A stretch of DNA of 64,000 nt. It comes from Desulfatibacillum sp. Lineage in GTDB: Bacteria; Desulfobacterota; Desulfobacteria; Desulfobacterales; SpSt-501. Positions 21,406 through 50,553 of this stretch are shown piece after piece. The stretch covers positions 241,656 to 305,655 of the forward strand of contig DYEU01000032.1 of NCBI GenBank assembly GCA_020725555.1, given 5' to 3'. The translations under genes were made by a program, and so were the position numbers. The notes beneath the pieces are model-generated. The model saw only the letters and a list, made by a program, of their open reading frames with translations. It was not told where the DNA came from and ran no database searches. Position 1 is the first letter of the stretch, and each line of letters opens with the position of its first letter.

Positions 21406-21499
21406 GTACCGCAACCGGGGGGGATGCCGGTTCACCTTCTTTCGAAGTACCGAAACGCGGCGCCGCAGGCAAGGGAAATTCCCGCCGGGCAATCCAAAT

Positions 21500-26247: not shown

Positions 26248-26265
26248 GGGTTTGAATTCGGTTAG
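26248..26265 (-). promoter_or_regulatory. Candidate internal Pho box upstream of pstS (two units)
   Basis: + strand GGGTTTG (26248) and CGGTTAG (26259), 11 bp apart (gene orientation CTAACCG aatt CAAACCC). About 100 bp upstream of the pstS ATG, directly after the pstA stop. Confidence 0.45.
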
Positions 26266-26269
26266 GGAC

Positions 26270-27574
26270 TCACCAACGCCGCTCGAAGCGCTTGCGCAGC
26301 CAGATCGCCCCCGCGTTCATCACCACCAGGAACGCCAGCAGGACGAGAATCGCCGCCGAGGTGCGCTCCACGAAGGCGCGCTCCGGGCTGTCCGCCCAGA
26401 GGTAGATCTGCACCGGCAGCACGGTCGCCGGGTCGGTAAAGCCCTTGGGGATTTCCACGATGAAGGCCACCATGCCGATCATGAGCAGCGGGGCGCTTTC
26501 CCCCAGGGCGCGCGCCATGCCGATGATCGTCCCGGTCAGCATGCCCGGAAGCGCCAGCGGCAGCACGTGGTGCAGAACCGTCTGCATGCGCGAGGCCCCG
26601 ACCCCCAGCGCGGCCTCGCGGATCGAGGGCGGGACGGACTTCAGCGCCGAGCGGCCGGCGATGATGATCGTGGGCAGGGTCATGAGCGTGAGCACCAGCC
26701 CGCCGACGAGCGGGGCCGAGCGCGGCAGGTGCAGGAAATTCAAAAACACGGCCAGCCCCAGCAGGCCGAAGACGATCGAGGGCACGGCCGCGAGGTTGTT
26801 GATGTTGACCTCGATCAGGTCGGTGATCCGGCCCTTGCGCGCGAACTCCTCGAGATACACCGCGGCCGCGACCCCGATGGGGAAGGAGAGCATCAGCGTG
26901 ACCGCAAGCGTGAAGAAGGAGCCGCTGACCGCCCCCCAGATCCCGGCCTGCTCGGGCTCGCGCGAGTCGCCGGCGGTGAAGAAGGTGCGGTTGAAGCGCT
27001 TCTCGAGCCGTCCCTCCGCCGCCAGGCGCTCCAGCCAGGCGAATTGGCGGTCCGAGACGCGGCGCTCGGCCTCGGGGAGATCGCGGCGGAAATGGCCCTT
27101 GACCGCCATGTCGATGTCGGCCCCGGCCTTGAGCCAGACCTCGCGCGTCTGCCCGATCACGCCGGGATCGCGCATGACGAGATCGCGGAGATCGTAGACC
27201 GCGGCGCTGCTGACGAGGGCGGCGAGCTCGCGCCGCTCCCGGCGCCCCTCGACGTCGGGGAAGAGCCGCCCCAGGCTCGCGCGGATGAGCTGGCCGTAGT
27301 CGGCCTGGGCGAGCGCCTCGGCGTGCAGGACCTCGGGGTCGAAATGGACCGGCAGCCGGATTTCCGTCTGGCGGAAGGCGCTCACGCCGTTGGCGAGGAG
27401 GCTTGCGAACATCAGGGCGAGAAACCCCAGGCTCAGAACCACCGCTGCCAGCCCAAGGAGGCGGAACCGCCGTTCGCTGCGGTAGCGCCGGGGGAGGCTC
27501 GCCCGCACGACGGCGATCGTGCGGCTGTTTTCCGGGGTTTTCCCGGCCCTCGGGTGCCCTTGCGTCTTACTCAT
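26270..27574 (-). CDS. pstA: Phosphate ABC transporter permease PstA (long form)
   Basis: EAA-type loop GMARALGESAPLLMIG. 434 aa with an N-terminal extension. Confidence 0.88.
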   Translation of the reverse strand: MSKTQGHPRAGKTPENSRTIAVVRASLPRRYRSERRFRLLGLAAVVLSLGFLALMFASLLANGVSAFRQTEIRLPVHFDPEVLHAEALAQADYGQLIRASLGRLFPDVEGRRERRELAALVSSAAVYDLRDLVMRDPGVIGQTREVWLKAGADIDMAVKGHFRRDLPEAERRVSDRQFAWLERLAAEGRLEKRFNRTFFTAGDSREPEQAGIWGAVSGSFFTLAVTLMLSFPIGVAAAVYLEEFARKGRITDLIEVNINNLAAVPSIVFGLLGLAVFLNFLHLPRSAPLVGGLVLTLMTLPTIIIAGRSALKSVPPSIREAALGVGASRMQTVLHHVLPLALPGMLTGTIIGMARALGESAPLLMIGMVAFIVEIPKGFTDPATVLPVQIYLWADSPERAFVERTSAAILVLLAFLVVMNAGAIWLRKRFERRW

Positions 27575-28955
27575 ATTGCTCCCGGTAACGGCGCACGATG
27601 TAGAGGGCGATGACGTTCAGGCAGAGGGTCACCACGAACAGCACCAGCCCCAGGGCGAAGGCGGCGAGCGTCTTGGGGCTGTCGAACTCCTGGTCGCCGA
27701 TCAGCAGGGTCACGATCTGGACGGTGACCGTGGTCACGGCCTTGAGGGGATTCACGGTGAGGTTGGCGGCAAGACCCGCCGCCATGACCACGATCATCGT
27801 CTCCCCGATGGCCCGGGAGACCGCCAGGAGGATCCCCCCCATGATCCCGGGGAGCGCGGCGGGAACGACCACGCGCCGTACGGTCTCCGAGCGGGTCGCC
27901 CCCAGGCTGTAGGCGCCGTCCCGCAGCGACTGGGGGACGGCGTTGATGAAATCGTCGGAGAGCGAGCAGACGAAGGGGATGATCATGATCCCCATGACGA
28001 CGCCGGCGGCAAGGGCGCTCTCCGAGGCGACATCGAGCCCGAGCAGGCCGCCTGCGTCGCGGACGAAGGGGGCGACGGTCAGGGCGGCGAAAAAGCCGTA
28101 CACCACGGTGGGGATGCCGGCGAGAATCTCGATCAGCGGCTTGGCGACCGCGCGGAAGCTCTTTCCGGCATACTCCGAGAGATAGATGGCCGACATCAGC
28201 CCGATCGGGACCGCGACCACCATGGCGATGGCGGAGATGAGGGCCGTCCCCAGAAAGACGGGGACGGCGCCGAAGGCACCCGAGGCCCCCACCTGGTCGG
28301 CGCGGATCGCCATCTGCGGGCTCCAGGAGAGGCCGAAGAGAAACTCCCCGACGGGGATGATGCGGAAAAAGAGAACCGCCTCGTAGACCACGGAAAGGAC
28401 GATGCCGACGGTGGTGAAAACGGCGATCGTGGAGCAGGCGACGAGCATGGCGGTCAAAATGCCCTCGACGTGGTTGCGCGCCCGGAGCGTCGGCCGCAGG
28501 CGGCGGCGCACGAGGAGGGCCATGGCGGCGGCCAGGGAGAGCGTCACCACGGCGAGCGCCTGGCGGCTCAGGCCGAGAAGCCGCCGGTAGGTCGCCGCGG
28601 CCTCCCGCACCGCCGGATCCGCTGCCGTCTCCTCGAAACGCCCGCCGGCGACATTGCGGATGTCGTTCACGATCAGGCTGAGCCGGTCCCCGGGCAGGCT
28701 GCGCTGGGGCTCGGGGAGGCCCTCGACGACGATCCGGGTGATCACCTGGGATTCAAAGGCAAGCCAGAGGGCAAACAGCAAGATCGCCGGCAGGGCGCAC
28801 CACAGAGCGACCAGGGCGCCGTGATAATTCGGCCGGGAGTGCAACCTCTGCGCCCGGCCGCCTGCGCCGGCCAGGGCGAAAGCCCGGCGCCGGCCGAGGT
28901 GGTAGGCCGCCGCGGAAAAGGCGAGCAGCACGGCAAGCAGGACAAACGGAGGCAT
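27567..28955 (-). CDS. pstC: Phosphate ABC transporter permease PstC (long form)
   Basis: SRAIGETMIVVMAAG loop typical of PstC. 462 aa with an about 150-aa N-terminal extension. 8-nt overlap with pstA. Confidence 0.88.
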   Translation of the reverse strand: MPPFVLLAVLLAFSAAAYHLGRRRAFALAGAGGRAQRLHSRPNYHGALVALWCALPAILLFALWLAFESQVITRIVVEGLPEPQRSLPGDRLSLIVNDIRNVAGGRFEETAADPAVREAAATYRRLLGLSRQALAVVTLSLAAAMALLVRRRLRPTLRARNHVEGILTAMLVACSTIAVFTTVGIVLSVVYEAVLFFRIIPVGEFLFGLSWSPQMAIRADQVGASGAFGAVPVFLGTALISAIAMVVAVPIGLMSAIYLSEYAGKSFRAVAKPLIEILAGIPTVVYGFFAALTVAPFVRDAGGLLGLDVASESALAAGVVMGIMIIPFVCSLSDDFINAVPQSLRDGAYSLGATRSETVRRVVVPAALPGIMGGILLAVSRAIGETMIVVMAAGLAANLTVNPLKAVTTVTVQIVTLLIGDQEFDSPKTLAAFALGLVLFVVTLCLNVIALYIVRRYREQYE

Positions 28956-29025
28956 CGACCCCTTTCTCCGCCCATGGCGGCCCGGGAGTCCGGGCCTGTC
29001 GAAGAGGACGTAGTGTTGCGGTCTT

Positions 29026-29065
29026 TGGTTAGGTTTCGGTTAGACTTCGGTTAACATCTCGTTAG
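29026..29065 (-). promoter_or_regulatory. Pho box array upstream of pstC (four units at exact 11-bp phase)
   Basis: + strand TGGTTAG (29026), CGGTTAG (29037), CGGTTAA (29048) and TCGTTAG (29059). Gene orientation CTAACGA/TTAACCG/CTAACCG/CTAACCA. 71-110 bp upstream of the pstC ATG. Confidence 0.7.
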
Positions 29066-29070
29066 ACCGC

Positions 29071-29358
29071 TCATTCGTAAAAGAGCTCCGGCGAGACGGC
29101 CAAGAATTGGGCCTGCCGCGAAAGAAGCGCCACCCGCGGCAGGGCCTCCTGGGGGGAGTTGCGGGTGGCGGCGAACGCGAGCTCCGCCGCCAGGCGGCGG
29201 ACGTAGTCGACCCGCTTGACGCAATGCATGCAGGTGTCGTTGTTCTTGTCGGCGTCGTGAAGAAGGCAACTGCGGCAGGGGCTGGTCATGGGTTCCATCC
29301 TTTTCACAGCGTGCGGTTTTTGGATCGATCCGCCGCGGCCGCGGCGGATCACGACCAC
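29071..29358 (-). CDS. Hypothetical small Cys4 (zinc-ribbon-like) protein
   Basis: SPCRSCLLHDADKNNDTCMHCVKRVDY (CxxC-N13-CxxC). Natural composition, unlike the overlapping frames. The true start is probably an internal Met (29298 or 29289). Confidence 0.45.
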   Translation of the reverse strand: MVVIRRGRGGSIQKPHAVKRMEPMTSPCRSCLLHDADKNNDTCMHCVKRVDYVRRLAAELAFAATRNSPQEALPRVALLSRQAQFLAVSPELFYE

Positions 29359-29406
29359 CCTGACGCCCGGGCGTTGCCCCGCGATGAGGAGCAGGTGAGA
29401 ATCGCG

Positions 29407-29424
29407 CTAACCCGGGCCTGCTCC
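29407..29424 (+). promoter_or_regulatory. Candidate Pho box (distal) upstream of the RPH-like gene
   Basis: CTAACCC (29407) and CTGCTCC (29418), 11 bp apart. Confidence 0.4.
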
Positions 29425-29461
29425 GGAACGACACCGCCCTCGGGGGCTCCGCTTGCTCGGG

Positions 29462-29490
29462 CTCATCGAATTCTAACCCGCCTGTGCCAT
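29462..29490 (+). promoter_or_regulatory. Candidate Pho box (proximal) upstream of the RPH-like gene
   Basis: CTCATCG (29462), CTAACCC (29473) and GTGCCAT (29484) at 11-bp phase. 58-86 bp upstream of the ATG at 29548. Confidence 0.5.
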
Positions 29491-29547
29491 CCGTTCGCTG
29501 GCCGGCACAGGGCTTCCGCCTATCCCACCCGAGGATGAGGATCCGTC

Positions 29548-31920
29548 ATGGGCGACATCGTCCGCATCGAAGACCCCGAGGCCATCGACGAAACCCGGGT
29601 CGGCCGCAAGTTCGCCGCCCTGGCTCGAGCCTCGCGCCTGGGCATCGCCGTGCCCGAGGCCGTGGCCGTCGGCACGCGGGCCCACGCCTCCTGGCGCAGC
29701 TCCGGCGCATGGCCCGAGGGGTTGAAGGAGGAGGTCCTCGCGGCAGCGGAGCGGCTGGGATGGGACGCGGGCCTTGCGGTCCGATCCTCGGCCGTCAAGG
29801 AGGATCTCGCCGGCTGCAGCTTTGCCGGGCAATACCGCAGCTTTCTCCAAGTCTCCACGCCGGAGGAGCTTTTCCGCCGCGTGGAAGATTGCTGGGATAG
29901 CGCCGCCTCGGAAACAGTGCGTGCCTACCTCGCGGCGCTCGCCGTCGAGGGGGCGGAAGCGGAAGCCCCGCTTCTCGCCGTGGTGCTGCAGCGCATGGTC
30001 CCGGCCGCCTGGTCGGGGGTGGCCTTCAGCCGTGACCCGCGGGCGCCGCAGCGCTCGGAGGCGCTCTGGATCGAGGCCGTGGCGGGAACGGCGGAATCGC
30101 TGGTTTCGGGCCTCGCGATCCCCTGGCGGGTCCGGATCGCCCGCCGGCCGGGAGCGCGGCCCGAAGCGGACGCCGGAAGCGCCCGCCGGATGCCGCCGGC
30201 TCTCCCCTGGAAGGCGGTCGCCGGCCTGCTCCTCACTCTGGAACAACGGCTGGGGGAAAACGGCCTGGACATCGAGTGGGCGGTCGACCGCGACGGCATC
30301 CTCTGGCTCCTCCAGCTCCGACCCATCACCGCGGCCGCAGCCGTCCCCGAGGACCTTCCGCCCCCCGGAATCTGGACGCGACGGCTGGCCGAGGATCTCT
30401 GGGGCGACCGGATCGAGCCGTTTTTCGCCGATGTCCTGCTGCGGCATGCGCCGCGTTTCGATCTCTCCCGCATTCTGACCCGCCTGGGCATCCCCCCGGT
30501 GCGGCCGTCGCTCGCCGTCATCGCCGGTTACCTCTACCTGAACGCCGGGGCCCTCTCCCGGATGGCGGCACAGCTTCCGCGGCGCTGGCGCCCCGCCGAG
30601 CTCGAAGGCCTTCTTCCGCCCGGGGCGAGGCCGGAGGCGACGCCGGCCCCGCCCTTTCCGCGACGGGGTGAGCTTTTGCTGCGGCTGCTCGCCCTGCCGT
30701 TTCGCGAGCCGCAATGCCTGCCGGGCATCTGCCTGCGGCGGGCGGCACGCACCGTCGCCGCCCTCGGCGAGCGCATCGCCGAGAGCCTCAGGCTTCCCGG
30801 GGGGACGGCCGCGGAGCGCCTCGCAGCACTTGCCTTCGACCTCGAAACCCTCGCCCGGATCCAGGAGAACAACCAGTGGCCTTACTTCCACGCCGCCGCC
30901 CTGCTCGCGGCTCTCCGCGAGGCGGCAGCCCGCCGGGGCCTGCCGGGAGAGGATGTGCTGCGGCTGATCGGCCGCAAGGCCGACAACGTGACGATCCGGA
31001 TCGAGGCCTGGTTCCGCGAGACGGCCGCACGCATCCGCAGCCGGCCGGAACTGGCGCACCGCTTTGCCTCAGCCCCGGCGGGAAGCGATCTGCGGCGCAT
31101 CCTGCCGCCGGACCTGGACCGGGAGCTCGAGCGGTTCCTCGCCGCCTGGGGCGCACGCGCCCGGCACCGCTCGCTCCTTGTGCCGCGCTGGGCCGAAGCC
31201 CCGGAGGAGGTCTTGAGAATTCTTCAGGCGCTGGTCCGCAACCCCGCCCCCGCCCGGTCGGCCGGGGGCGGAGAGGTCCTCGCCCCGCCGCTTCTTCTCC
31301 GGTGGCTCTCCCGCCGGGTGACCCGGTTTCTCGACCTGCGGGAGGAGCTGCGCTTTCTCCTCGACCGGGCGCTCTACCGCATCCGGATCGATCTTCTGGC
31401 GTTGGGGCGGCTGCTCGGAGCGGGGGAAGAGATCTTTTACCTCAGGCTCGAGGAGATCGAGGCGCTCGCGCTGGGCGCACTTGCCCTCCCGGAGGCCCTT
31501 TCCCGGGCCGGAAGGCGCAAGCGGCGTTTCGCGACAGCGCCCGATCCGAGCCCCTTCTGGATCGACGGCCGGCCCCACCACGAGCTGACCACCGCGCACC
31601 GCATCCTGCGGGGCATCGGGGCGAGCCCGGGGACGGCGACCGGGCGGGCCGTTCTGGTGACCGACCCGGCGGATCCCTCGGTGCGCCGCGGCGACATTCT
31701 CGTGGCGCGGCACACCGACCCCGGGTGGACGCCGGTCTTCAGCATCGCGGGGGGGGTCGTCACCGAGGAGGGCGGGCTCCTGAATCACTGTGCGATCGTG
31801 GCCCGCGAGCTGGGCATCCCCACCGTCGTCGGGGTTCGGGGGGCGATGCGCCTTGTGCCGCAGGGCTCGCGGATCACCGTGGACGGCAGCTCGGGGACGA
31901 TCCTGATTCCGCCGGAATGA
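29548..31920 (+). CDS. PEP-synthase-family phosphotransferase with rifampicin-phosphotransferase-like architecture (ATP-grasp, helical middle domain, C-terminal swivel His domain)
   Basis: N-terminal VGRKFAALA...SSAVKEDLAGCSFAGQY...DIEWAVDRDGILWLLQLRP. Middle GIWTRRLAEDLWGD. C-terminal GIGASPGTATGRAV...GGLLNHCAIVARELGIPTVVG. Confidence 0.85.
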   Translation: MGDIVRIEDPEAIDETRVGRKFAALARASRLGIAVPEAVAVGTRAHASWRSSGAWPEGLKEEVLAAAERLGWDAGLAVRSSAVKEDLAGCSFAGQYRSFLQVSTPEELFRRVEDCWDSAASETVRAYLAALAVEGAEAEAPLLAVVLQRMVPAAWSGVAFSRDPRAPQRSEALWIEAVAGTAESLVSGLAIPWRVRIARRPGARPEADAGSARRMPPALPWKAVAGLLLTLEQRLGENGLDIEWAVDRDGILWLLQLRPITAAAAVPEDLPPPGIWTRRLAEDLWGDRIEPFFADVLLRHAPRFDLSRILTRLGIPPVRPSLAVIAGYLYLNAGALSRMAAQLPRRWRPAELEGLLPPGARPEATPAPPFPRRGELLLRLLALPFREPQCLPGICLRRAARTVAALGERIAESLRLPGGTAAERLAALAFDLETLARIQENNQWPYFHAAALLAALREAAARRGLPGEDVLRLIGRKADNVTIRIEAWFRETAARIRSRPELAHRFASAPAGSDLRRILPPDLDRELERFLAAWGARARHRSLLVPRWAEAPEEVLRILQALVRNPAPARSAGGGEVLAPPLLLRWLSRRVTRFLDLREELRFLLDRALYRIRIDLLALGRLLGAGEEIFYLRLEEIEALALGALALPEALSRAGRRKRRFATAPDPSPFWIDGRPHHELTTAHRILRGIGASPGTATGRAVLVTDPADPSVRRGDILVARHTDPGWTPVFSIAGGVVTEEGGLLNHCAIVARELGIPTVVGVRGAMRLVPQGSRITVDGSSGTILIPPE

Positions 31921-32995
31921 GCGGCCGGGCGGACCGCCTGCCGCCCGCCGGCACCGCCTCGACCGGAAAGAGGGTCTCCTCCCAGCAGCGGCGCGCCAGG
32001 TCCGCCGGATCTTCCCACGAGCAGCCTGCGATCCAGCGGGCGATGTGCGCGGCCACGTCGGGGTAGCGGACGCGGACGCCGCCGGGGCGCCGCAGAAAGG
32101 CCTCCACCGCCCTTCCGTCCAGCCGGTTCATCACCTCCCCCAGGCCGAGCAGGGTGAGCGCCCGCGCGTTGGAGAGCTGCTCCATCTGACCGCCTAGCGG
32201 CTTGACGAGGATCTTCTTGCCGAGCTGCAGCGCCTCGCTGGCGAGCTCGAAGCCGGCATTGGTGATCACCCCGGCGCTCTCGGCGAGCGCCCGGAGAAAG
32301 CCGGCGCGGCGGAGCGGACGCCAGCGGAGATGCCCCTCGTCGACGGGGCGCTCAAGATGATGATGGATACGAAATTCCCACCCGGAAAAGGGGGCGAGGA
32401 GCCGGCGGATGTCCTCGATCTCCTCAAAGGGCAGGTAGACAAGAATGCATCTCTCGCGCACCAGACCGCCGGCCGGCAGCTCCGGCACCACGGGGGGAAG
32501 GATCGGCTGGCCGAAGGAATGCCAGTGCAGGCCCAGGCGGTGGCGGGCCGGGGCGAACCGCCGCAGGACGAACCAGGCGAAGGGGTCGAAGCCGGCGACG
32601 GGGATGCGGTAGTGGAAGGCGTACTGGTGGCCGATGCCGATCGCGGGCAGGCGGTGGCGGAGCGCGATGCGCGCGGTGATGGGCTCGAAGTCGGTGATCA
32701 CCAGATCCACGCCGCGGGCGTCCTCGAGGCGGATGTCGCGGTAGAAACGGGCGAGGTTCAACCCGGCGAGCGTCCGGAACGGCTGGAGCCTTCCCCGGCG
32801 CGTGGCGAAGGTGAGCCCGGGCAACACCCGGTAGGGCTCGAAGGCCTCCATGTCCCAGAGGCGCTCGGCGGGGCGGCCGCTCACGATCACGCGCACCTCG
32901 TGCCCGTCCTGCTTGAGGCGGCGGACGATTTCCCGCGAGCGGCTGAGATGGCCGTTGCCCGTTCCCTGGACGCCGTAGAGGATGCGCAAACCCAT
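31874..32995 (-). CDS. MJ1255/VC2487-family (GT28/MurG-like fold) glycosyltransferase
   Basis: N-terminal ILYGVQGTGNGHLSRSREI motif characteristic of this family. 373 aa. The 3' end overlaps the convergent RPH-like gene by 47 nt. Confidence 0.75.
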   Translation of the reverse strand: MGLRILYGVQGTGNGHLSRSREIVRRLKQDGHEVRVIVSGRPAERLWDMEAFEPYRVLPGLTFATRRGRLQPFRTLAGLNLARFYRDIRLEDARGVDLVITDFEPITARIALRHRLPAIGIGHQYAFHYRIPVAGFDPFAWFVLRRFAPARHRLGLHWHSFGQPILPPVVPELPAGGLVRERCILVYLPFEEIEDIRRLLAPFSGWEFRIHHHLERPVDEGHLRWRPLRRAGFLRALAESAGVITNAGFELASEALQLGKKILVKPLGGQMEQLSNARALTLLGLGEVMNRLDGRAVEAFLRRPGGVRVRYPDVAAHIARWIAGCSWEDPADLARRCWEETLFPVEAVPAGGRRSARPLIPAESGSSPSCRPR

Positions 32996-32998
32996 CGA

Positions 32999-33526
32999 TC
33001 ATCCCACGGCGCGGATGCCGCAGGCGGCGCTCAGGATGCCGAGGAGCATCCCCGCCAGGACATCGCTGGGGAAATGAACCCCTAAATAGACGCGGGAGAC
33101 GCCCACGGCGGCGGCCCAGAGACCCGCCGCGGGGAGGAGCGGCGGGCAGGCCTCCGCAAGGAGGGTCGCCGCCACGAAGGCGGCGGCCGTGTGGCCGGAA
33201 GGGAAGCTGAAGCGGTCGGAGGGCCTCCGGCGGCAGGCGATGCCGGCGACGACTTCGAAGGGCCGGCTGCGCCGGACCGCCTGTTTGATGAGCCGGTAGG
33301 CGGCGAGCTCCACGGCGAAGGCGATGCTCCCCGCCAGAAGGAAGAAGCGGCCGGCGGGCGGATCCAGCAACCACAGCAGGATCGCCAGCAGCGGATAGGC
33401 CGGGCCGTCGCCGCTCGCGGAGATGCGGCGCAACCCGCGGGCGATCCACCGCCGGTCGTCCAGGCAAAATATTGCCGCCACGCCGCGGGCGTCCCAGCGC
33501 ACCAAACGATCGACAAGCGCCTGCAT
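32999..33526 (-). CDS. PAP2-family phosphatase (phosphatidic-acid / lipid phosphate phosphatase type)
   Basis: KxxxxxxRP (IKQAVRRSRP), PSGH (FPSGHTAAAF) and SRxxxxxHxxxD (SRVYLGVHFPSD) signature motifs. ATG at 33526 chosen inside the artefactual long ORF. Confidence 0.85.
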   Translation of the reverse strand: MQALVDRLVRWDARGVAAIFCLDDRRWIARGLRRISASGDGPAYPLLAILLWLLDPPAGRFFLLAGSIAFAVELAAYRLIKQAVRRSRPFEVVAGIACRRRPSDRFSFPSGHTAAAFVAATLLAEACPPLLPAAGLWAAAVGVSRVYLGVHFPSDVLAGMLLGILSAACGIRAVG

Positions 33527-33582
33527 GGTGTCAGGATGGCGGTTTCCTGTTTCGATCGCGTGAGGAAGACGTGCGTTTTCGG

Positions 33583-34776
33583 TTACAGCCCGGTGGCGAT
33601 CACGAGGTCCGTGATCGGGCCGCGGGACTTCTCCCCCTTGAGCACGAGGTGCGCGTAGATGCGGCTTCCCCTGAACTTCTTGACCAACCAGTTCAGGCCG
33701 TTGTTCTCGGGGCTGAGGTAGGGCGGGTCCACCTGGCGGGTGTCTCCCAGGCAGAAGCATTTCACCCCTTCGCCCATGCGGGAGAGCAGGGTGCGGCACT
33801 CCTGGCGCGAGAGGTTCTGCATTTCGTCGATGATGACGACCGCCTGTTCCAGGTTCATGCCGCGGATGAAATTGAGCGGGAGAATTTCGAAGAGCCGGGG
33901 GTTGAACAGCGGCGGGTTCGTCTCCGCGTCCTGAAACAGCTTGTTCGCCGGGCGCAGGCGGTGGAGCTTGAGCACCAGGTCGGAGACGGCGCGCGTGTAG
34001 GGCTCCATTTTTTCGTCGAGCCTCCCCGGCAGGTAGCCCAGCTTCTGGCCGATTTCGACGGTGGGCTTGACCACGTAGATTTTCTCGTGGCTCTTGCGCT
34101 CCAAGACGAGCGTCAAGGCGCAGGCGAGCGCCAGAAAGCTCTTGCCGTAGCCCGCTTCGCTCTGGATCGAAACCACCAGAAGCTCCGGGTTCATCATCAG
34201 CTCGATCGCCAGGTTCTGGTAGACGTTGCGCGGGGTGACCTTCCAGGCCCGGTGCAGGTAGTCGATCGTCTTCTCCCCTTCGGCGCCGACAAAGACCGGC
34301 TTTCCCTGCTCGTTCCAGAAGAAGCTGTTCACCGGGGCCCGGGCGCGGTCGGGGGCAAAGCCGGTAAAATGCTCGGCCTCGGAGCGGAAGGGGACGGACT
34401 CGCGGTAAATTTCGCTCGGGATGCCGTTCAGCCGGGCCTCGAGCTGCAGCATGCGGTCGTTGGTCACGAGAATCGGCCGCTCGAGGCGGCTTGCCCGGAT
34501 CTCCTCGAGGATGAATCGGTCCACGCGGTCGGCGAAGCGGGCGGCGACGCCGGCGGTTTCGAGGACCTGGAAGGCATCCGGGTCCGCCATGAGCTGGTCC
34601 ACCACGCGGCCGACGACATGGCGGTGCCGGGGGTGCTTGCGAAGATGGTTCAGCTCGAGGAGGACGTGGTGCGGAATGAAAATGCGGTTCTGGTTTCCGT
34701 TGCGCAGCTTGAGGAGGCATTGCGGGTCTTCGAGCAAGACGTTGGTGTCGACAACATACTCCTTGGCTTCATTCAT
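33583..34776 (-). CDS. phoH: PhoH-family ATPase with N-terminal PIN domain (YlaK-like)
   Basis: PIN start YVVDTNVLLEDP. P-loop SIQSEAGYGKSFLA. PhoH core VVIIDEMQNL. ATG at 34776 has a GGAGGA RBS 9 nt upstream (track start 34785 is a TTG). Confidence 0.85.
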   Translation of the reverse strand: MNEAKEYVVDTNVLLEDPQCLLKLRNGNQNRIFIPHHVLLELNHLRKHPRHRHVVGRVVDQLMADPDAFQVLETAGVAARFADRVDRFILEEIRASRLERPILVTNDRMLQLEARLNGIPSEIYRESVPFRSEAEHFTGFAPDRARAPVNSFFWNEQGKPVFVGAEGEKTIDYLHRAWKVTPRNVYQNLAIELMMNPELLVVSIQSEAGYGKSFLALACALTLVLERKSHEKIYVVKPTVEIGQKLGYLPGRLDEKMEPYTRAVSDLVLKLHRLRPANKLFQDAETNPPLFNPRLFEILPLNFIRGMNLEQAVVIIDEMQNLSRQECRTLLSRMGEGVKCFCLGDTRQVDPPYLSPENNGLNWLVKKFRGSRIYAHLVLKGEKSRGPITDLVIATGL

Positions 34777-34922
34777 GCGCGGCAATCCTCCGCTGGGGTT
34801 TGGGAAAGCCGAAACTGCTGCGGCTGGCGGCGGCCGGGCGGCGCCGCAGGCCTGCGGGGCGGCAGGAACAGAGCGGATCGGGGGGAGAAGAAAGGGAAAC
34901 CCTGTCGGCCATGGAAACGGGG

Positions 34923-36773
34923 TCAGATCCCTCCCTGGGCGGCCCGCCGTACCGGCCGGCGCCGCCCCGCGGCCTCATCCTCGGCCCGCACGCGGGCCTC
35001 GAGCCGGATTTTTTCCGCCGGCACCCCTTTCTCTATCAGCTCGCGGGCGACCCCCGGCGAGGGGACGTAGACCGTGCGCACATGGCCGTAGAACCAAGCG
35101 AGGTATTTCCAGGCGAGGTCCTCGATGAAGGTGTCGTGCGTGAGCTGGCGCGCCAGGCGGGGAATCGCCTCGCTGTGGGTCGCCTCCAGCGGCAGGCCGA
35201 GGAAGCGGCCGATGAAGAGCCCGGCAAGACCGGTCGGCCCGGAACCCGCCAGGTGAAGACGCTCGATCGGCTGCGAAAAACAGAAATCGAGCATCTCCAG
35301 GAGCGGGGGGTAGACCAGCCGTTCCCCCGGGAGCTCCTCGAAGGCATAGACGCCAATCGGTGCAAAGCGCCGGACCGCCCCGCCTTCCGTGTCCGCTTCG
35401 CAGGTGAGCACCACCCGCTCCGCTTCCTCCCGGCCCCCGGCGGCGGCCAGCCCCTGAGCGGCGTTTTCGGCGAAGACGGCGCAGCGCAAGGGCCGCGCCG
35501 CGGCGCCCTGCGCGCCCAGCTGCCCCGCCGCCTCGCGGGCCAGGCGGATCTGGGCGTTGTGGTGGGCGAAGCCCACGAAGTAGGGGGCGAGCAGGGTGCA
35601 GAACCCGCCGGCGGAGCCGATCGTGTGAAAGATGCTGAAGAGATTCGCCCCCGAGAGGTGGTCAAGCAGGTGGTTGGCGAAGCCGAGCAAAATGCGGCTC
35701 GACATCTTGTGAATGAAGTCGAACCAGCGTTCGGCCGACGGCTGCGGCACCTGCTTCGCCCTGCGCGGGAGAGCGAAGAGTTCCGGCTCATCGCGGATCA
35801 GGCGCGCCGTTTCCTTGCGCAGGAGATCGACCAGGGGCCCCGGCAGGCTGCCCCGGATCCGGCGCAAGCGGCGGGCCTGCCAGAGAAAGTGCAACCGGGA
35901 GAGTATCCCGCCCTCTTCTTCCTCCGGCGTCCCGCGCAGGCTGCGATCCACGAACCGCAGCAGAAAATCGTGCGGCACCTGGGCACCGAGATCGAGCCGG
36001 GCGCGATAGAACTGGTAGGCGATGCTGTAGAGGTTGTGGGCGAGATGCTTCGGCGAGGAGGGCTCCTCGATCACCTGCGCCGCCCCCGCCTCGATCCCCG
36101 CGAAGAACTCCGCCGCCGACCGGGCGCCCTCGACCCGGGTGAAGGTGCGGCCGATGGTGAGGGAGCTGTGATCATCGGAGCCGCCGATCAGCCGCTTGAC
36201 CCAAGGGAGGGGGCCGACGGGGGCGATCCCGTGCCGGTCCGCAAGCTGCCCAAGCGCCTGCGGGGTCAGTGCCGCGAGCATCTCGCGCAGGCGGCGGTTC
36301 GCCTCGGGGTGGCTGTCGCCGTTGATTTCGAAGACCGAAAACAGCAGCAACAGTTTCTCGATGTGCGCGGGGGTCAGCCGGTCGTTGACCGCGTAAAACG
36401 GATGGGCCGCGGCGTGAAACACCCCTTCCTGCCGCAGGTAGCCGAGAAGCTCGTAGAGGTTCGGGCGCAGTTTCTGGATCTCGGCGTGTTGGGCTTCGCT
36501 GATGCGGTAGACGAGGACATGCACCTTGCAGCCGTCCTCCGGCAAATAGCTCGTCACCTCCTCGCCGATCACGACGCCGGGGAGGTGCGCGATCTCGAGC
36601 GCCCCCTCGATGCGGTTGTGATCGGTGACCGTCACCAGATCCATGCCGCGACGGCGGGCGAGGTGATAGAGCCGGAGGGGTTCGGTAAAGCTCTCGGGAC
36701 AGCCGATCTTCTGCAGCAGCCACTGGGAGGGCCGCTGCGAGTGCCGTGAGTGCACATGCAGGTCCGCTTGCAT
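34923..36773 (-). CDS. Fusion protein: N-terminal PHP-domain metallophosphoesterase, helical linker, and a GT4-type glycosyltransferase N-terminal half only
   Basis: PHP motifs ADLHVHSRHS, DLVTVTDHN and GGSDDHS. The C-terminal part aligns by eye to the SqdX/GT4 N-domain (IERLHLAGSGPTGLAGL..., LEATHSE, VYVPSPGVARELIEKGVPAEKIRL) but ends where the nucleotide-sugar-binding C-domain should start. ATG at 36773 chosen. Confidence 0.7.
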   Translation of the reverse strand: MQADLHVHSRHSQRPSQWLLQKIGCPESFTEPLRLYHLARRRGMDLVTVTDHNRIEGALEIAHLPGVVIGEEVTSYLPEDGCKVHVLVYRISEAQHAEIQKLRPNLYELLGYLRQEGVFHAAAHPFYAVNDRLTPAHIEKLLLLFSVFEINGDSHPEANRRLREMLAALTPQALGQLADRHGIAPVGPLPWVKRLIGGSDDHSSLTIGRTFTRVEGARSAAEFFAGIEAGAAQVIEEPSSPKHLAHNLYSIAYQFYRARLDLGAQVPHDFLLRFVDRSLRGTPEEEEGGILSRLHFLWQARRLRRIRGSLPGPLVDLLRKETARLIRDEPELFALPRRAKQVPQPSAERWFDFIHKMSSRILLGFANHLLDHLSGANLFSIFHTIGSAGGFCTLLAPYFVGFAHHNAQIRLAREAAGQLGAQGAAARPLRCAVFAENAAQGLAAAGGREEAERVVLTCEADTEGGAVRRFAPIGVYAFEELPGERLVYPPLLEMLDFCFSQPIERLHLAGSGPTGLAGLFIGRFLGLPLEATHSEAIPRLARQLTHDTFIEDLAWKYLAWFYGHVRTVYVPSPGVARELIEKGVPAEKIRLEARVRAEDEAAGRRRPVRRAAQGGI

Positions 36774-36827
36774 ACGCTCCTTTCCGCATCGCGTCGCCAC
36801 GCGTTTGCCCATCATTCAACCCCGTGC

Positions 36828-36856
36828 GGGTTAGCCGGCGATTACGCAACCGCTAA
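36828..36856 (-). promoter_or_regulatory. Candidate Pho box upstream of the PHP-fusion/phoH/PAP2/GT operon
   Basis: + strand GGGTTAG (36828), CGATTAC (36839) and CCGCTAA (36850) at 11-bp phase. 55-83 bp upstream of the ATG at 36773. It would sit only 13 bp from the track start at 36815, which supports the shorter ORF. Confidence 0.5.
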
Positions 36857-36904
36857 ATGTTGATGAAGGCGGCGCAGTGCGGGCAAAAAAGGCCGGAGGG
36901 CGGC

Positions 36905-37531
36905 TCAGGGGGCGGGCACCCACCAGGGGGCCGCGGCCACGCCGAGGCCGATCGCGAAAAGGGAGGCCCCGCAGAGGCGCGCAATCAGCGCTGGAGGCAG
37001 GCGGGCGGCGAGAGGGACGAGGGCGTTCGCCCCCAGGGCGAGCAGAGGCGCCCAGAGTGCCGATCCCGTGAACACCCCCGCGGCCCAAGCGGTCGCCGCC
37101 GCAGGGCCGCCGCCGCTAAGGTTCAAGGCCGAGAAGGACGCGCTCAGCACGAGAATCGGCAGCGGATTGGAGAGCATGAGGACGGCCGAGGTGAAAAACG
37201 CCCCCCGCAGCCGCCCTCCCCGATCCGCTCGCGCCGCGGCGCCGGCCGCCTGCCCGGGCGGCAGGCGGCGGAAGAGGCGCAGGCCGACGCCGGCCAGCAC
37301 GGCTCCGGCCGCAGGATGGAAGAGATCGCGGTGTTGCTGGAGAAAAGCGTTCAGCAGCGCAAGCCCCCAGCCCGCCGCCAAGGCGTAGAGGGCATCCACG
37401 ACCGCCGCCCCCAGCACGGCGAAGATCCCGGCCAGGCGGCCGTCGCTGAGCGTCCGCTGCAGGCTAAGAATGCCGATCGGGCCGAGCGGGGCGCAGAGAA
37501 TGAAGCCGATCGCCGTTCCTTCCCAGAACAT
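36905..37531 (-). CDS. LysE/RhtB-family amino-acid exporter
   Basis: About 208 aa with 6 hydrophobic segments. N-terminal GFILCAPLGPIGIL motif typical of the LysE superfamily. ATG at 37531 chosen. Confidence 0.75.
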   Translation of the reverse strand: MFWEGTAIGFILCAPLGPIGILSLQRTLSDGRLAGIFAVLGAAVVDALYALAAGWGLALLNAFLQQHRDLFHPAAGAVLAGVGLRLFRRLPPGQAAGAAARADRGGRLRGAFFTSAVLMLSNPLPILVLSASFSALNLSGGGPAAATAWAAGVFTGSALWAPLLALGANALVPLAARLPPALIARLCGASLFAIGLGVAAAPWWVPAP

Positions 37532-37644
37532 CCCGAGGGGGTGCCTCGCTTTCCGCGTTGCTTCGGTCGCCTGGCGTTTTGCCCCACTCCGGCTCGGAGG
37601 CCGCCGCGCGGGATCAACGCACTCTTTGCGTTCATCCAACCCTC

Positions 37645-37673
37645 CGGTTAGGCCGTCGTTGCCAAACGGTTAG
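37645..37673 (-). promoter_or_regulatory. Candidate Pho box in the lysE / olsF-like divergent region
   Basis: + strand CGGTTAG (37645), TCGTTGC (37656) and CGGTTAG (37667) at 11-bp phase. Orientation matches the minus-strand gene (114-142 bp upstream of its ATG). Confidence 0.55.
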
Positions 37674-37726
37674 AAATCGATCGCCGCAGGGTCCTGACGA
37701 GAGGGGGGCCCCTGCCGCGGCGGCGG

Positions 37727-37766
37727 CAAACCAAAAATTCGCATCTCTTTAGCAAAACCCTAAGAC
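37727..37766 (+). promoter_or_regulatory. Weaker 11-bp-phased array oriented toward the OlsF-like gene
   Basis: CAAACCA (37727), TTCGCAT (37738), TTAGCAA (37749) and CTAAGAC (37760). The last unit is 54 bp upstream of the ATG at 37820. Confidence 0.3.
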
Positions 37767-37819
37767 AAGCGCGCGAAGATGCCTCCGTTTCGGGCGTACC
37801 GCCCGCAAGGAGGAGGCCC

Positions 37820-39694
37820 ATGCGCACCGAGATCCCTTCCCCCCGCGTGTTCTCTCTCGTCCCGCAATCGGCCGCCGGCACCGGTTGGCTGGCCTGCGCC
37901 CTGCGTCCGGTCGAAGGGCTTCTCGGGCTGCGGGAATGCGAGGCCGTCTATCGCGGCCTGGCGGCGATCGAGGACCCCCGGCGATTCCTGCAGGCGACGC
38001 TCGCGGCCCTCGGCGTGCGCTGCGCCGGGCCGGAAGGGATGGAACAGATCCCCCCCGCGGGCCCGACGGTCGTCGTGGCCAACCACCCCTACGGCGGCAT
38101 CGAGGGGGTCCTGCTCGCCGAACGGCTGCTGTCGGTGCGCGGCGACGTGAAAATCCTCGCGAACTACCTGCTCCACCGCATCCCCCAGCTCCGGCCCCTC
38201 GTCATCCCCGTCGACCCCTTCGGCCGGCGGGGAGCGGCGTCCGCGAACCTCGCCCCGCTGCGACAGGCGATGCGCTGGGTGGCCCAGGGCGGCCTCCTGC
38301 TGGTGTTCCCCGCAGGCGAGGTCGCGCACCTGAGGCTCTCGGCGCGCGAAATCACCGATCCGCCCTGGAACCCCGCCGTGGCCCGGATCGTGCGTCACGC
38401 CCGGGCCACGGTCGTCCCCGTGTTCGTCCGCGGTCGCAACCGCATGCGCTTTCATCTCGCAGGCCTCGTCCACCCGCGGCTGCGGACCGCGCTTCTCGGC
38501 CGCGAGTTGCTCCACCGGCGGGGAAAGCCGCTGGACGTCAAGATCGGCAGCCCGATCCCCTACCGCTGGCTGCAAGCCCATCGCGACGATCGCCGCCTGA
38601 TGGAGTACCTGCGTTGGCGGACCTACGTCCTGGGCTGCACCGCCCGCCCCCCGCGGCGCTTTCCGGCCCTTCCGGTTGCAGCCTTGGGCCGCAAGCAGGC
38701 GGCGATCGCCCCCGCCCAGGACCCCGCCCGGCTCGCCGCCGAAATCGCCGCCCTGCCCGCCGACCGGCTTCTTGCGCGCAGCGGCGCCTTCCGGGTCTTT
38801 CTGGCGGAAGCCCGCGACATCCCGCGGGTCCTGCTCGAAATCGGCCGCCTGCGTGAACTCACGTTTCGCGCGGCCGCGGAAGGAACCGGCAAGCCCTTCG
38901 ATCTCGACCGCTTCGATTCGCTCTACCTCCACCTGTTCATCTGGGACGAGGGGGAGAAAAGGATCGTCGGGGCCTACCGCATCGGCCAAACCGACCGCAT
39001 CCTCGCGTGCCACGGCCGGGAGGGTCTCTACACGACGACCCTCTTTCACAGCCGCATGGAATTTTTCCGCAAAATCGGGCCCGCCCTCGAGATGGGCCGC
39101 TCCTTCATCCGGCCGGAATACCAGAAGTCCTACTCCTCGCTGCTGCTCCTGTGGAAAGGGATCGGAAGCTTCGTCGCCCGCAACCCGCGGTACCGGACGC
39201 TCTTCGGACCCGTGAGCATCAGCCGCGACTACAGCGAACTCTCGCGCCGCCTGATCGCCTCCACGCTCCTCCAGCACAGCCAGGCGAAGGACCTCTCGCT
39301 CATGGTCCGGCCCCGCAAGCCCGCCGCCCTGAAGCCTCCGCGGGTGCCCGGCTGCGGACGCATCGGCCGCAACCTCTCGTTTCAGGATTTCCGGGAGGTC
39401 TGCGCGCTGATCGCGGACCTCGAACTGCAACAAAAAGAGGTTCCCGTCCTGCTGCGCCAGTACCTGAACTTGGGCGGGCAGTTGCTCGCATTCAGCATCG
39501 ACCGCAGTTTCGGAAACGTGATGGACGGCCTGATCGTGGTCGATCTGCTGAAAACCGACCGCCGCACCCTCAGGCGCTATCTGGGGGAGGAGGGCGCGGC
39601 AACCTTTCTTTCGTTCCATGAGGAACGGGGTGGCGTGGAATCGGGGGTTGCCGAAGACGCCGGGGGAACCCTGCGGCCGGCGGAAAGCGCCTGA
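37820..39694 (+). CDS. Bifunctional acyltransferase, OlsF-like: N-terminal PlsC-type (HX4D-like NHPYGGIEG) O-acyltransferase plus C-terminal OlsB/GNAT-type N-acyltransferase
   Basis: VVANHPYGGIEG and FPAGEV blocks (lysophospholipid acyltransferase). C-terminal LRELTFRAAAEGTGKPFDLDRFD...YRIG...GRSFIRPEYQ typical of the OlsB/hemolysin-like N-acyltransferase domain. Confidence 0.8.
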   Translation: MRTEIPSPRVFSLVPQSAAGTGWLACALRPVEGLLGLRECEAVYRGLAAIEDPRRFLQATLAALGVRCAGPEGMEQIPPAGPTVVVANHPYGGIEGVLLAERLLSVRGDVKILANYLLHRIPQLRPLVIPVDPFGRRGAASANLAPLRQAMRWVAQGGLLLVFPAGEVAHLRLSAREITDPPWNPAVARIVRHARATVVPVFVRGRNRMRFHLAGLVHPRLRTALLGRELLHRRGKPLDVKIGSPIPYRWLQAHRDDRRLMEYLRWRTYVLGCTARPPRRFPALPVAALGRKQAAIAPAQDPARLAAEIAALPADRLLARSGAFRVFLAEARDIPRVLLEIGRLRELTFRAAAEGTGKPFDLDRFDSLYLHLFIWDEGEKRIVGAYRIGQTDRILACHGREGLYTTTLFHSRMEFFRKIGPALEMGRSFIRPEYQKSYSSLLLLWKGIGSFVARNPRYRTLFGPVSISRDYSELSRRLIASTLLQHSQAKDLSLMVRPRKPAALKPPRVPGCGRIGRNLSFQDFREVCALIADLELQQKEVPVLLRQYLNLGGQLLAFSIDRSFGNVMDGLIVVDLLKTDRRTLRRYLGEEGAATFLSFHEERGGVESGVAEDAGGTLRPAESA

Positions 39695-39909
39695 AACGCG
39701 TGCGCGCCGCCTGCAAAGCCGCCGCCGGCCGACCCGTCGGGTGTTCTCTCGCCCGCGATGGGACTCGGGCTGCTCGCCCCGCCACCGGCTGCCGGCCGGC
39801 AGAACCCAATAGAAACCAACACCTTTTCATCCTGCCCCGTCGCTCACGGCGAAGGCCTGCGGCGTCTCGGCTCCCCCGACCCGCTCTCGATTCCGGCTTC
39901 AACGCAAAA

Positions 39910-39938
39910 CAAACCGAACGCTAATGAGCCGCTCACCC
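39910..39938 (+). promoter_or_regulatory. Candidate Pho box upstream of phnC
   Basis: CAAACCG (39910), CTAATGA (39921) and CTCACCC (39932) at 11-bp phase. 67-95 bp upstream of the ATG at 40005. It overlaps the track start at 39924, arguing against that start. Confidence 0.5.
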
Positions 39939-40004
39939 GCTGACCTTACAACCCCAGCCGACCGTCTCGGGCGGTCCCCGACCACGTTCCCGAAAGGGGG
40001 AGGC

Positions 40005-49419: not shown

Positions 49420-49892
49420 TCCCCCAGGGATCCGAAATCGATGCGCTCGCCGGCCATGGAATCAAAGCGCACGCGGGTTGCGGCCGCGAAATGGGCGGTC
49501 TCCTGCAGCTTGCGGCGCCGGCGGGGGGCGAGGCGCCGGAGAAACTCCTCCAGCACACCCTTGGCCTCGGGGTGGCCGGACCGATCCACCGCCTCGGCCG
49601 CGGCCGCAAGCAGCGCCCCTTGCGGCTCGTCGCCGCAGACGGTGGCGGCACCGGTGGCCTCGCCCAGGCCGACCTCGGCCTCGGTCACGAGCAGCTCGCC
49701 CAGGTAAAAGGGTGTCGCGAACGGATCGCGGGCGGCGACGAGGAGGAGAGCCGGCTGCGGCGGCCTAAGCACCGCAAAGGGGGCCTTCTCCCAGAGTCGG
49801 TCCAGCACGGCCTCGAGCTCGGCTCGCTCGGCCGCCTCCAGGACAGCGAGGAGCCGCGGTTTCAGGCCGAAAACGGGGGTCGTTTCATCCAT
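49416..49892 (-). CDS. phnG: C-P lyase core complex subunit PhnG
   Basis: About 158 aa, [13 protein letters not shown] motif, 4-nt overlap with phnH. Confidence 0.85.
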
Positions 49893-50520: not shown

Positions 50521-50553
50521 GTCCTGCCTTCCGCGGGGCATCCTGAAACGGCA

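Follow-up and report, generated by a model that had tools for sequence, protein, structure and literature searches.

A stretch of 64,000 nucleotides from Desulfatibacillum sp. (contig DYEU01000032.1, positions 241,656 to 305,655; hereafter the window, with a GC content of 68.8%) carries on its minus strand four genes encoding, in this order, a protein that fuses a PHP domain to half of a GT4 glycosyltransferase, a PIN-PhoH protein, a PAP2 lipid-phosphate phosphatase and a glycosyltransferase of the MJ1255 family. Our analysis suggests, with moderate confidence, that these genes form a cluster, under the control of PhoB/PhoR, that replaces membrane phospholipids with phosphorus-free lipids. The gene identities, domains and folds, the conservation of the cluster and of its operator, and the history of the truncation seen in the first gene were all computed; Pho induction, every substrate and the identity of the enzyme making diacylglycerol are what we infer.

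At low phosphate, PhoB is predicted to bind four repeats, phased at 11 bp, that stand in for a -35 element, and the four genes would then be transcribed. The PHP protein would be a metal-dependent phosphoesterase located peripherally at the membrane, in which the lipid- or acceptor-binding half of an ancestral GT4 glycolipid synthase of the Agt type is kept and the sugar-donor half is lost. Either this protein or PAP2, or both, would strip phospholipids or phosphatidic acid of their phosphate or phospho-head groups to give diacylglycerol, to which the translationally coupled MJ1255 enzyme would add a sugar from a nucleotide sugar, yielding glycosyl- or glucuronosyl-diacylglycerol. An OlsF-like neighbour would make ornithine lipid in parallel, and PIN-PhoH would be a co-regulated RNA helicase or nuclease that is not obligatory for the lipid pathway. 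An earlier note on this DNA had proposed head-group removal to diacylglycerol followed by glycosylation, and this proposal is supported in part: the MJ1255 enzyme is not the sole candidate for the glycosylation step, because a GT28 gene of the MGDG-synthase family adjoins phoBR in the same window.

Operon layout and the Pho-box-like operator

The four open reading frames lie between 31874 and 36815 and show the codon-position GC pattern of real genes. The PHP fusion (34923-36773, minus strand, 616 amino acids (aa)) is followed on the same strand by the PhoH2-type PIN-PhoH ATPase/nuclease (33583-34776, 397 aa), the small integral-membrane PAP2 phosphatase (32999-33526, 175 aa) and the MJ1255/VC2487-family GT-B glycosyltransferase (31874-32995, 373 aa). 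The intergenic gaps measure 146, 56 and 3 bp, with phoH beginning at ATG 34776, PAP2 at ATG 33526 and the MJ1255 gene 3 bp past the PAP2 stop codon. Both the co-directional arrangement and these gaps had been described in the earlier note and were reproduced from the open reading frames and codon-position GC, and the gene identities and operon layout given there were borne out. The true start of the PHP fusion is ATG 36773, which is preceded by the ribosome binding site GGAAAGGAG and whose product is 100% identical to database protein P0001 (616 aa); the alternative upstream ATG 36815, which would give a longer reading frame, falls within the predicted -10 element. An Rfam scan of 29000-40000 gave no RNA element, and a scan for terminators in 31500-38000 returned 7 against 4.6 expected, which is chance level, with none convincing inside the operon.

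Upstream of the PHP gene stands a Pho-box-like operator (36828-36867, minus strand) of four hexamer-type units phased at 11 bp, namely TTCATCA, TTAGCGG, GTAATCG and CTAACCC at positions 36867, 36856, 36845 and 36834, respectively. The array had previously been placed at 36828-36856, and these coordinates hold for units 2-4, but the count of three units does not, as a fourth conserved unit, TTCATCA, lies beyond them at 36861-36867. The array recurs in the same register ahead of orthologues with 46-76% identity, though the surrounding promoter sequence has diverged. A putative -10 element, TTGAAT (36814-36819, minus strand), follows the last repeat unit at a distance of 9 bp, and its positions T-n-n-A-A/G-T, read by eye, are in register across the orthologous promoters. 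No match to a strict sigma-70 consensus (-35/-10 pair) was found in a scan of 31500-38000, as is expected of an activator-dependent promoter without a -35 element.

The same motif recurs at other phosphate genes. The pattern CTAACC-N5-CTAACC, with at most two mismatches, has 6 matches in the window against 0.86 expected, and four of the six are located upstream of pstC and pstS. A scoring matrix built from 13 orthologous PHP promoters, with the window's own promoter left out, scored 21.3 at this operon, 25.8 at pstC (four units, 29027-29065), 23.0 at the phn/C-P-lyase (carbon-phosphorus lyase) operon (50554-50582, minus strand; the second-best array in the window), 15.6 at olsF (37727-37755), 15.1 at phnC and 14.5 at lysE. 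Six window sites score at least 14, as compared with 0.12 expected from simulated sequences, for which the maximum was 11.7 +/- 2.5 and the highest value 18.7. The pstS repeat (26249-26265) scored 10.2, which is under the mean null maximum. The genes phoB, phoR, phoU, pstSCA, phnCDE and those for C-P lyase all lie inside the window. Since the array is conserved in orthologues and a matrix derived from those orthologues finds the pstC and phn promoters, the predicted Pho control of the operon is well supported by sequence comparison, and the sharing of the motif with the pst, phn and olsF promoters agrees with the Pho control predicted earlier.

The Pho box recognised by PhoP of Bacillus subtilis consists of four TT(A/T/C)ACA-like hexamers with 11-bp spacing. 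The operator described here is similar in having four 11-bp direct hexamer repeats just before a predicted -10 element and no -35 element, and its unit consensus, [T/C]TAA[C/T]C/A, is close to TTAACA of the B. subtilis box; it differs in belonging to another phylum and in being a predicted target of PhoB. It was also observed that the phn array precedes a hexapeptide-repeat transferase gene (49885-50541, minus strand) at the head of the C-P lyase (phnG-M) operon, from which phoU (50740-51396) is divergent.

The truncated PHP-GT4 protein and its relatives

The 616-aa protein is composed of a PHP domain (residues ~1-235), a helical region (~241-418) and the N-terminal Rossmann half of a GT4 glycosyltransferase (~430-600), in which Pfam Glyco_transf_4 (PF13439) matches at residues 449-604. 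PF00534, which includes the nucleotide-sugar-binding E-x7-E region, has no Pfam match in the protein, and the reading frame stops at residue 616; the stop is followed by 146 bp and then by phoH. The PHP domain itself gave no match to PF02811 at E <= 0.01, and NF038032 reached 41.6 bits, under its cut-off of 80. All PHP metal ligands (H-x-H, DH, E, H, H, DDH) are invariant in an alignment of 11 sequences, and among 40 relatives D51, H52, E71, E72, H85, H124, D200, D201 and H202 are invariant and H6 and H8 nearly so (>=90%). Because a PDB profile search with the PHP-fusion family gave no sequence matches, folds were compared instead, using an AlphaFold2 model (pLDDT 80.5, pTM 0.78). With Foldseek, the PHP part matched structures of the RNase AM/TrpH type, 7ug9 (E 1.4e-7) being followed by 7rty, 3o0f, 2anu and 2yb1, and the GT4 part matched the N-terminal halves of GlgM, BshA and MshA. 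The description of the first gene as a PHP fusion was therefore correct for the PHP domain, as judged by ligands and fold, and the part fused to it proved to be just the N-terminal half of a GT4 enzyme, on the acceptor side.

Relatives of the PHP fusion were sought among 5.8 billion proteins and were found in two forms, a short form of ~611-650 aa (more than 40 proteins, 58-87% identical) and a full-length form of ~810-850 aa with a complete GT4 domain including PF00534. Alignment with relatives of 817-830 aa placed the end of the short forms at the GT4 inter-domain boundary, and the N-terminal 'NGV' loop region of GT4 was missing from them as well. For the full-length GT4 domain, the best NCBIfam matches were models of lipid glycosyltransferases that stayed under cut-off, namely GlcNAc-PG synthase (130-149 bits), MGlcDAG synthase and IagA/BgsA. 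A relative is encoded in at least 594 GTDB species, Desulfobacter curvatus and Desulfosarcina variabilis among them. Our genome scan took the best 80 of these species, among which Desulfovibrio alaskensis G20, discussed below for its lipid swap at low phosphate, is not found, and several of the closest loci in the scan are labelled Desulfatibacillum.

The distribution of the two forms indicates how the truncation came about. In a sister clade that is ~50% identical (L021, L025, L027, L028), a full-length protein is followed by phoH, PAP2 and MJ1255, and the ancestral operon therefore had two glycosyltransferases. In the genome scan, all 16 short-form loci with space for a neighbour have an MJ1255 gene nearby, against only 3 complete full-length loci, plus 1 cut by a contig end, out of ~55. 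Two short proteins of that sister clade share 79% (P0049) and 77% (P0056) identity with the full-length P0050, yet both stop at the same domain boundary, and the PAP2 gene begins 22 nt past the stop codon of the P0056 gene. Because P0049 and P0056 are so close to P0050, loss of the GT4 donor half occurred independently at least twice; for the short forms of L050/L065, a neighbour-joining tree did not show whether they arose separately. Judging from the loci compared, each loss of the donor half occurred beside PAP2-MJ1255.

Within the short forms, mean pairwise identity is 72% for the PHP domain, 67% for the helical region and 52% for the leftover GT4 half, and the corresponding values in full-length forms are 63% for PHP and 64% for the GT4 half. 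In our reading, GT4 catalysis was lost while an independent function of PHP was kept, one that would still need the scaffold formed by the helical region and the acceptor side; that the donor half was lost repeatedly argues for the PHP half having a function of its own. The truncation is best described as a case in which the PAP2-coupled TIGR00661 glycosyltransferase would have made the GT4 catalytic half dispensable.

The function kept by the PHP domain need not concern lipids. If the operon served a mixed scavenging of phosphate, PHP would be an RNase AM/TrpH-like nuclease or a nucleotide phosphatase (acting, e.g., on pAp or on UDP from glycosyltransferases) that recovers phosphate from RNA and nucleotides together with PIN-PhoH; only PAP2 and MJ1255 would act on lipids, and the GT4 half would be vestigial. 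This would fit the Foldseek ranking, headed by RNase AM (7ug9), V. cholerae RNase AM and the Cv1693-type enzyme crystallised with AMP and phosphate, as well as the faster evolution of the GT4 half in short forms and the position of phoH, which comes directly after the PHP gene in many loci and is present in 21 of ~72 loci overall. We nevertheless consider this explanation unlikely, as hundreds of species have PHP in fusion with a complete GT4 domain of the lipid type, apparently also in the validated glycolipid synthase of strain G20, as neither the helical region nor the GT4 half, both still conserved, was ever deleted despite two losses of the donor half, and as many operons with PHP have phoH absent or moved out. 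An SPS/SPP-like route, in which PHP-GT4 would be a sugar-phosphate synthase plus phosphatase making compatible solutes, was rejected in view of the membrane PAP2 partner and the OlsF linkage, and further because the GT4 matches are of the lipid type and because of the phenotype in G20.

Full-length PHP-GT4 loci of other Desulfobacterota (L005, L007, L065, L070, L081, L085, L052, L066 and ~30 more) most commonly have a co-directional radical-SAM neighbour (32 loci), and other flanking genes encode a phosphatidylserine (PS)-decarboxylase-like protein, Methyltransf_24, an LGT-like membrane protein and an unannotated protein of 823 aa. These flanking genes could represent a second head-group pathway, of interest beside the unexplained butyramide-cysteine lipids of Desulfatibacillum. 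Further neighbours of the PHP-GT4 family are PhoU, Pst and PhoH genes.

The PAP2-MJ1255 pair and the conserved neighbourhood

The PAP2 protein matches PF01569 with E 1.1e-23 (83.8 bits against a cut-off of 27.2), and the three signature motifs already reported for it were all read in the sequence as K-QAVRRS-RP, PSGH and SR-VYLGV-H-FPS-D (KX6RP, PSGH, SRX5HX3D), together with hydrophobic segments. Its best solved relative is LpxE of Aquifex (6ebu; E 1.6e-10, 44.5 bits), followed by several soluble acid phosphatases, YodM and PgpB of Escherichia coli. The NCBIfam scores against their cut-offs were 55.7/250 bits for SepP, 47.2/229 for PRK11837, 32.5/261 for PgpB and 17/177 for LpxE. Like the window protein, LpxE of Aquifex aeolicus is a small PAP2 membrane phosphatase (~175-180 aa), but it acts on the lipid A 1-phosphate, whereas no lipid A genes surround PAP2 here. 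LpxE reportedly also acts on undecaprenyl diphosphate (C55-PP) and phosphatidylglycerol phosphate (PGP).

The glycosyltransferase encoded by the last gene matches TIGR00661 (MJ1255/VC2487) at 204.3 bits, above the cut-off of 195.9 (residues 4-312), and Glyco_trans_1_3 (PF13528) in Pfam. Its model shows a complete GT-B fold (pLDDT 87.8) and retrieved GT1-family GT-B enzymes with Foldseek (E ~1e-11), and the residues of the G-x-G-H loop (G13, G15, H16) and of the C-terminal E-Q...N-A donor motif (E272, Q273, N276, A277) are invariant. An assignment to a GT28-fold MJ1255 family had been made before; the family and the GT-B fold were upheld, and the closest solved structures turned out to be those of GT1 enzymes. 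An exact look-up of the MJ1255 protein in the contig index gave no record, and a literature search for PF13528, TIGR00661 and MJ1255 returned nothing relevant and no characterised member. The second glycosyltransferase candidate, the GT28 gene of the MGDG-synthase family (20209-21492, minus strand; PF06925 and PF04101), is divergent from phoB (21599-22291, plus strand) and phoR (22120-24117, plus strand), and a weak repeat match (9.4) is present in the intergenic region shared with phoB. It scored 220 bits with NF010135, 'diglucosyl diacylglycerol synthase', under the cut-off of 500, and is a more conventional candidate glycolipid synthase than MJ1255.

These matches bear on another explanation, in which the operon remodels the envelope: PAP2 would be an LpxE/UppP-type enzyme acting on lipid A or undecaprenyl diphosphate, MJ1255 would glycosylate an acceptor other than diacylglycerol (for instance a precursor of lipid A, a polyprenyl-linked intermediate or a secondary glycolipid), and the outer envelope would come to contain less phosphate. 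The rank of LpxE among the solved PAP2 relatives, the undecaprenyl-diphosphatases SepP and PRK11837 as best NCBIfam matches, the likeness of MJ1255 to GT1 enzymes, which take many hydrophobic aglycones, and the availability of a separate GT28 MGDG-synthase-like gene for diacylglycerol are all consistent with it. However, the PAP2 subfamily scores are far under their cut-offs, and the conserved neighbourhood is devoid of lipid A, O-antigen and polyprenyl genes, its constant partners being OlsF, the PHP-GT4 relative and pst. Moreover, the known glycosylation at the phosphate positions of lipid A uses periplasmic GT-C enzymes and not GT-B enzymes, and we regard envelope remodelling as distinctly unlikely.

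Neighbourhoods were established by exact-protein look-ups and by tblastn of the window proteins against 87 loci. All short-form loci with enough flanking sequence carry PAP2 and MJ1255 downstream, then a convergent gene for a phosphoenolpyruvate (PEP)-utilising, Rph-like protein and then pstC-pstA-pstS, and PAP2 and MJ1255 are adjacent in every examined locus that has both. The pair is also found alone, in L088 a few kb from a divergent olsF/short-PHP pair, and in L089 behind a PstS-like gene and beside CHAD and metallophosphoesterase genes. The order PHP, PAP2-MJ1255 and convergent PEP-utilising gene is kept at identities from 50% to 87%. This constancy speaks against the genes being clustered only through Pho control, with no common pathway and with the truncated PHP-GT4 protein as a decaying remnant, as could be supposed from the clustering of unrelated Pho genes (pst, phn, phoU) in the same place and from the variable presence of phoH, which is degraded in one relative. 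The short forms are, in addition, a large conserved family with intact PHP ligands, and PAP2 and MJ1255 are separated by those 3 bp only, and mere co-regulation is thus very improbable.

Divergent from the operon lies a gene for an OlsF-like bifunctional acyltransferase (37820-39694, plus strand), which combines an N-terminal O-acyltransferase (Acyltransf_2, PF19576) and a C-terminal N-acyltransferase (Acetyltransf_5, PF13444) in one chain and is a candidate ornithine-lipid synthase; its NF052615 score of 378.8 bits is under the cut-off of 620. An OlsF-like gene adjoins the PHP gene in 13/13 short-form loci with room upstream, being directly upstream and co-directional in 6 of the 13 and divergent in some. 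The lipid-remodelling theme of the earlier note is supported by this neighbour and by the pst, phn, phoU and phoBR surroundings.

The position of phoH is less constant. The window protein has a PhoH domain (PF02562, residues 183-385, E 4.5e-39) with the motifs Walker A GYGKS and DE, and a PIN_4 domain (PF13638, residues 10-127, E 3.1e-14), and it scored 149.3 bits with NF053827, under the equivalog cut-off of 680. In 13 operons, that is the window and 12 short-form loci with room downstream, phoH lies inside the operon in 7, beyond olsF in 2 (L016, L017), is missing from 3 (L013, L015, L019) and is degraded in 1 (L001/L002). This last locus is on the closest long contig, where the PHP protein is 74% identical; there phoH (11972-12855) is broken into two pieces, one of 119-124 aa and one of 170 aa, and is ~330 nt shorter, and the other three genes are intact. 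Across the PHP family phoH is the second most frequent neighbour, as exemplified by an olsF-phoH pair opposite a full-length PHP-GT4 gene. The presence of phoH in a lipid operon, to which attention had been drawn, thus holds for the window, but phoH is not integral to the operon and would be a variable passenger of it. Mycobacterial PhoH2 likewise has a PIN domain fused to a PhoH ATPase (PMC7390352), with the difference that phoH is here variably embedded in a lipid operon and that the match is under cut-off.

Among the remaining neighbours, a gene for a LysE-family exporter (36905-37531, minus strand; PF01810) with its own array (~37645-37673, the matrix match being at 37673 on the minus strand) is found between olsF and the operon in the window and in L002, L008, L010, L016 and L017, and is missing or located elsewhere in the other loci (absent from L003 and L012). 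A possible role of the exporter is the handling of ornithine or another head-group amino acid. LysE was also observed to recur near full-length loci (L005).

The PEP-utilising Rph-like phosphotransferase gene (29548-31920, plus strand; 790 aa; PPDK_N and PEP-utilizers, with a mobile His domain), whose product resembles rifampicin phosphotransferase, is convergent with the MJ1255 gene, their 3' ends overlapping by 47 bp, and is preceded by a CTAACC-type repeat (29462-29478, plus strand). It is present in all short-form loci with room downstream, and orthologues, which carry an Rph_4th domain, were found in L001-L004, L008-L019, L021, L025, L027 and L039, being split in two in L001/L002. One would not expect a dikinase-type enzyme in a cluster concerned with phosphate starvation. 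Between this gene and pstC lies a small Cys-rich open reading frame (CxxC...CxxC; 29071-29358, minus strand) with no Pfam or NCBIfam match, with a matrix match of 13.9 upstream (29410, minus strand) and with relatives in L001 (17137-17355) and L003 (17416-17649) that are called as proteins of 72-77 aa. The products of pstC (27567-28955) and pstA (26270-27574), both on the minus strand, are unusually long (462 and 434 aa), and their N-terminal extensions correspond to DUF3708 and DUF3333 in orthologues.

Relation to known lipid-remodelling systems

The PlcP/Agt renovation of membranes in Sinorhizobium, Agrobacterium, SAR11 and roseobacters is Pho-controlled and combines PlcP, a calcineurin-type metallophosphoesterase, with Agt, a complete GT4 enzyme. 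The phosphoesterase gives diacylglycerol, which is converted to glucosyl- or glucuronosyl-diacylglycerol, often alongside ornithine-lipid synthesis. The cluster described here is similar in placing Pho-linked genes for a candidate phosphoesterase and a glycosyltransferase beside a candidate ornithine-lipid gene. It differs in that the phosphoesterase candidates are a PHP domain and PAP2 instead of a calcineurin-type PlcP, and no match to PF00149, the calcineurin-like family of PlcP, was found in the four operon proteins or in the LysE, OlsF-like and PEP-utilising proteins. It further differs in that the GT4 relative is without its donor half, the intact enzyme being a TIGR00661 GT-B glycosyltransferase of the GT1/GT28 type. 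Thus, the operon would resemble PlcP/Agt functionally but without both defining enzymes, the calcineurin-type PlcP and the intact GT4. In the galactolipid synthesis of plastids, cyanobacteria and Chlorobium, which is constitutive and serves photosynthetic membranes, a PAP2-type phosphatidate phosphatase feeds the GT28 MGDG synthase MGD1. The PAP2-MJ1255 pair is comparable in that PAP2 would supply diacylglycerol to an inverting GT-B enzyme of the GT1/GT28 type, and differs in being Pho-linked, translationally coupled and of the TIGR00661 family.

A closer comparison is provided by D. alaskensis G20, also a sulfate-reducing member of the Desulfobacterota and showing the same low-phosphate response, for which the lipid swap was studied by transposon fitness and lipidomics (Bosak et al., 2016; PMC5193443). 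A mutant of Dde_3613 ('agt') lost all glycolipids (MGDG, GADG) at low phosphate and a mutant of Dde_3661 ('olsF') lost the ornithine lipids, the two genes being separate loci with no induced multigene operon reported (PMC5193443). The lipid swap that the earlier note named for G20 is reported in that study; the induced multigene operon is not, two separate genes being described. The supplement annotates Dde_3613 as a group-1 glycosyltransferase and with a 'PHP domain N-terminal region', and the neighbours that it covers (Dde_3611, 3615 and 3616, not 3612 and 3614) include no PhoH, PAP2 or MJ1255 (PMC5193443). The main text makes no mention of PHP, phosphoesterase or PlcP (PMC5193443), and in the library searched no paper was found that discusses the PHP domain in enzymes of the Agt type or connects PHP domains with the remodelling of lipids. 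The architecture of Dde_3661 matches the OlsF-like neighbour described here, and a further difference from G20 lies in the window PHP protein, which is without a catalytic donor half. Another relevant case is Desulfatibacillum alkenivorans, a cultured member of the same order, which at low phosphate replaces phosphatidylethanolamine, phosphatidylglycerol and cardiolipin by glucuronosyl-glycerol lipids and aminolipids (PMC11181052).

Since the first gene is a truncated member of the PHP-GT4 family, whose full-length form appears to include Dde_3613, the operon is not made up of wholly different enzyme families from the Agt type, contrary to what had been suggested. The cluster would best be described as a variant of PlcP/Agt remodelling that descends from the PHP-GT4 'Agt' family of sulfate reducers. 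We further propose, tentatively and with less than even confidence, that the PHP domain fused to the sulfate-reducer 'Agt', in Dde_3613 of G20 and in hundreds of Desulfobacterota species, may be an unrecognised phospholipase-C-like enzyme or phosphatidate phosphatase in the role of PlcP, in this clade uncoupled from its own glycosyltransferase and feeding diacylglycerol to a PAP2-coupled MJ1255 glycolipid synthase.

Several points weigh against a lipid-replacing operon and have to be set beside this proposal. The nearest solved PHP relatives use nucleotides or RNA (RNase AM, pAp phosphatase) and not lipids, and the PHP fusion has no predicted transmembrane segment, because of which it would have to be a peripheral membrane protein. 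The nearest PAP2 relatives are LpxE, PgpB/YodM and undecaprenyl-diphosphatases, all under cut-offs. The active site of bacterial PAP2 usually faces the periplasm and GT-B enzymes work in the cytoplasm; the distribution of positive charges in the PAP2 protein, which would indicate its topology, is ambiguous across orthologues. To our knowledge, no TIGR00661 member and none of the operon enzymes has a demonstrated substrate. The canonical GT28 gene could be the main diacylglycerol glycosyltransferase, with MJ1255 taking a second or other step, and the 146-bp gap ahead of phoH could house an internal promoter. Lastly, that Dde_3613 appears to share the full-length PHP and GT4 architecture is something we infer from annotation strings and not from an alignment.

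Where glycolipids free of phosphorus occur in anoxic waters and sediments, they are taken to indicate phosphate stress, and for sulfate reducers only one glycolipid synthase gene, Dde_3613 of G20, is known; the locus adds widely conserved candidates, among them a PHP phosphoesterase that is fused to the glycolipid synthase or accompanies it, for the supply of diacylglycerol. The operator motif predicts the Pho regulon of these uncultured bacteria, and the repeated loss of the donor half is a natural experiment on PHP function. For an orphan family of glycosyltransferases, the PAP2-MJ1255 pair would provide the first functional assignment: if our proposal is true, the MJ1255 enzyme would be the first TIGR00661 member with a function, possibly the glucuronosyl-glycerol lipid synthase of Desulfatibacillum-type bacteria.

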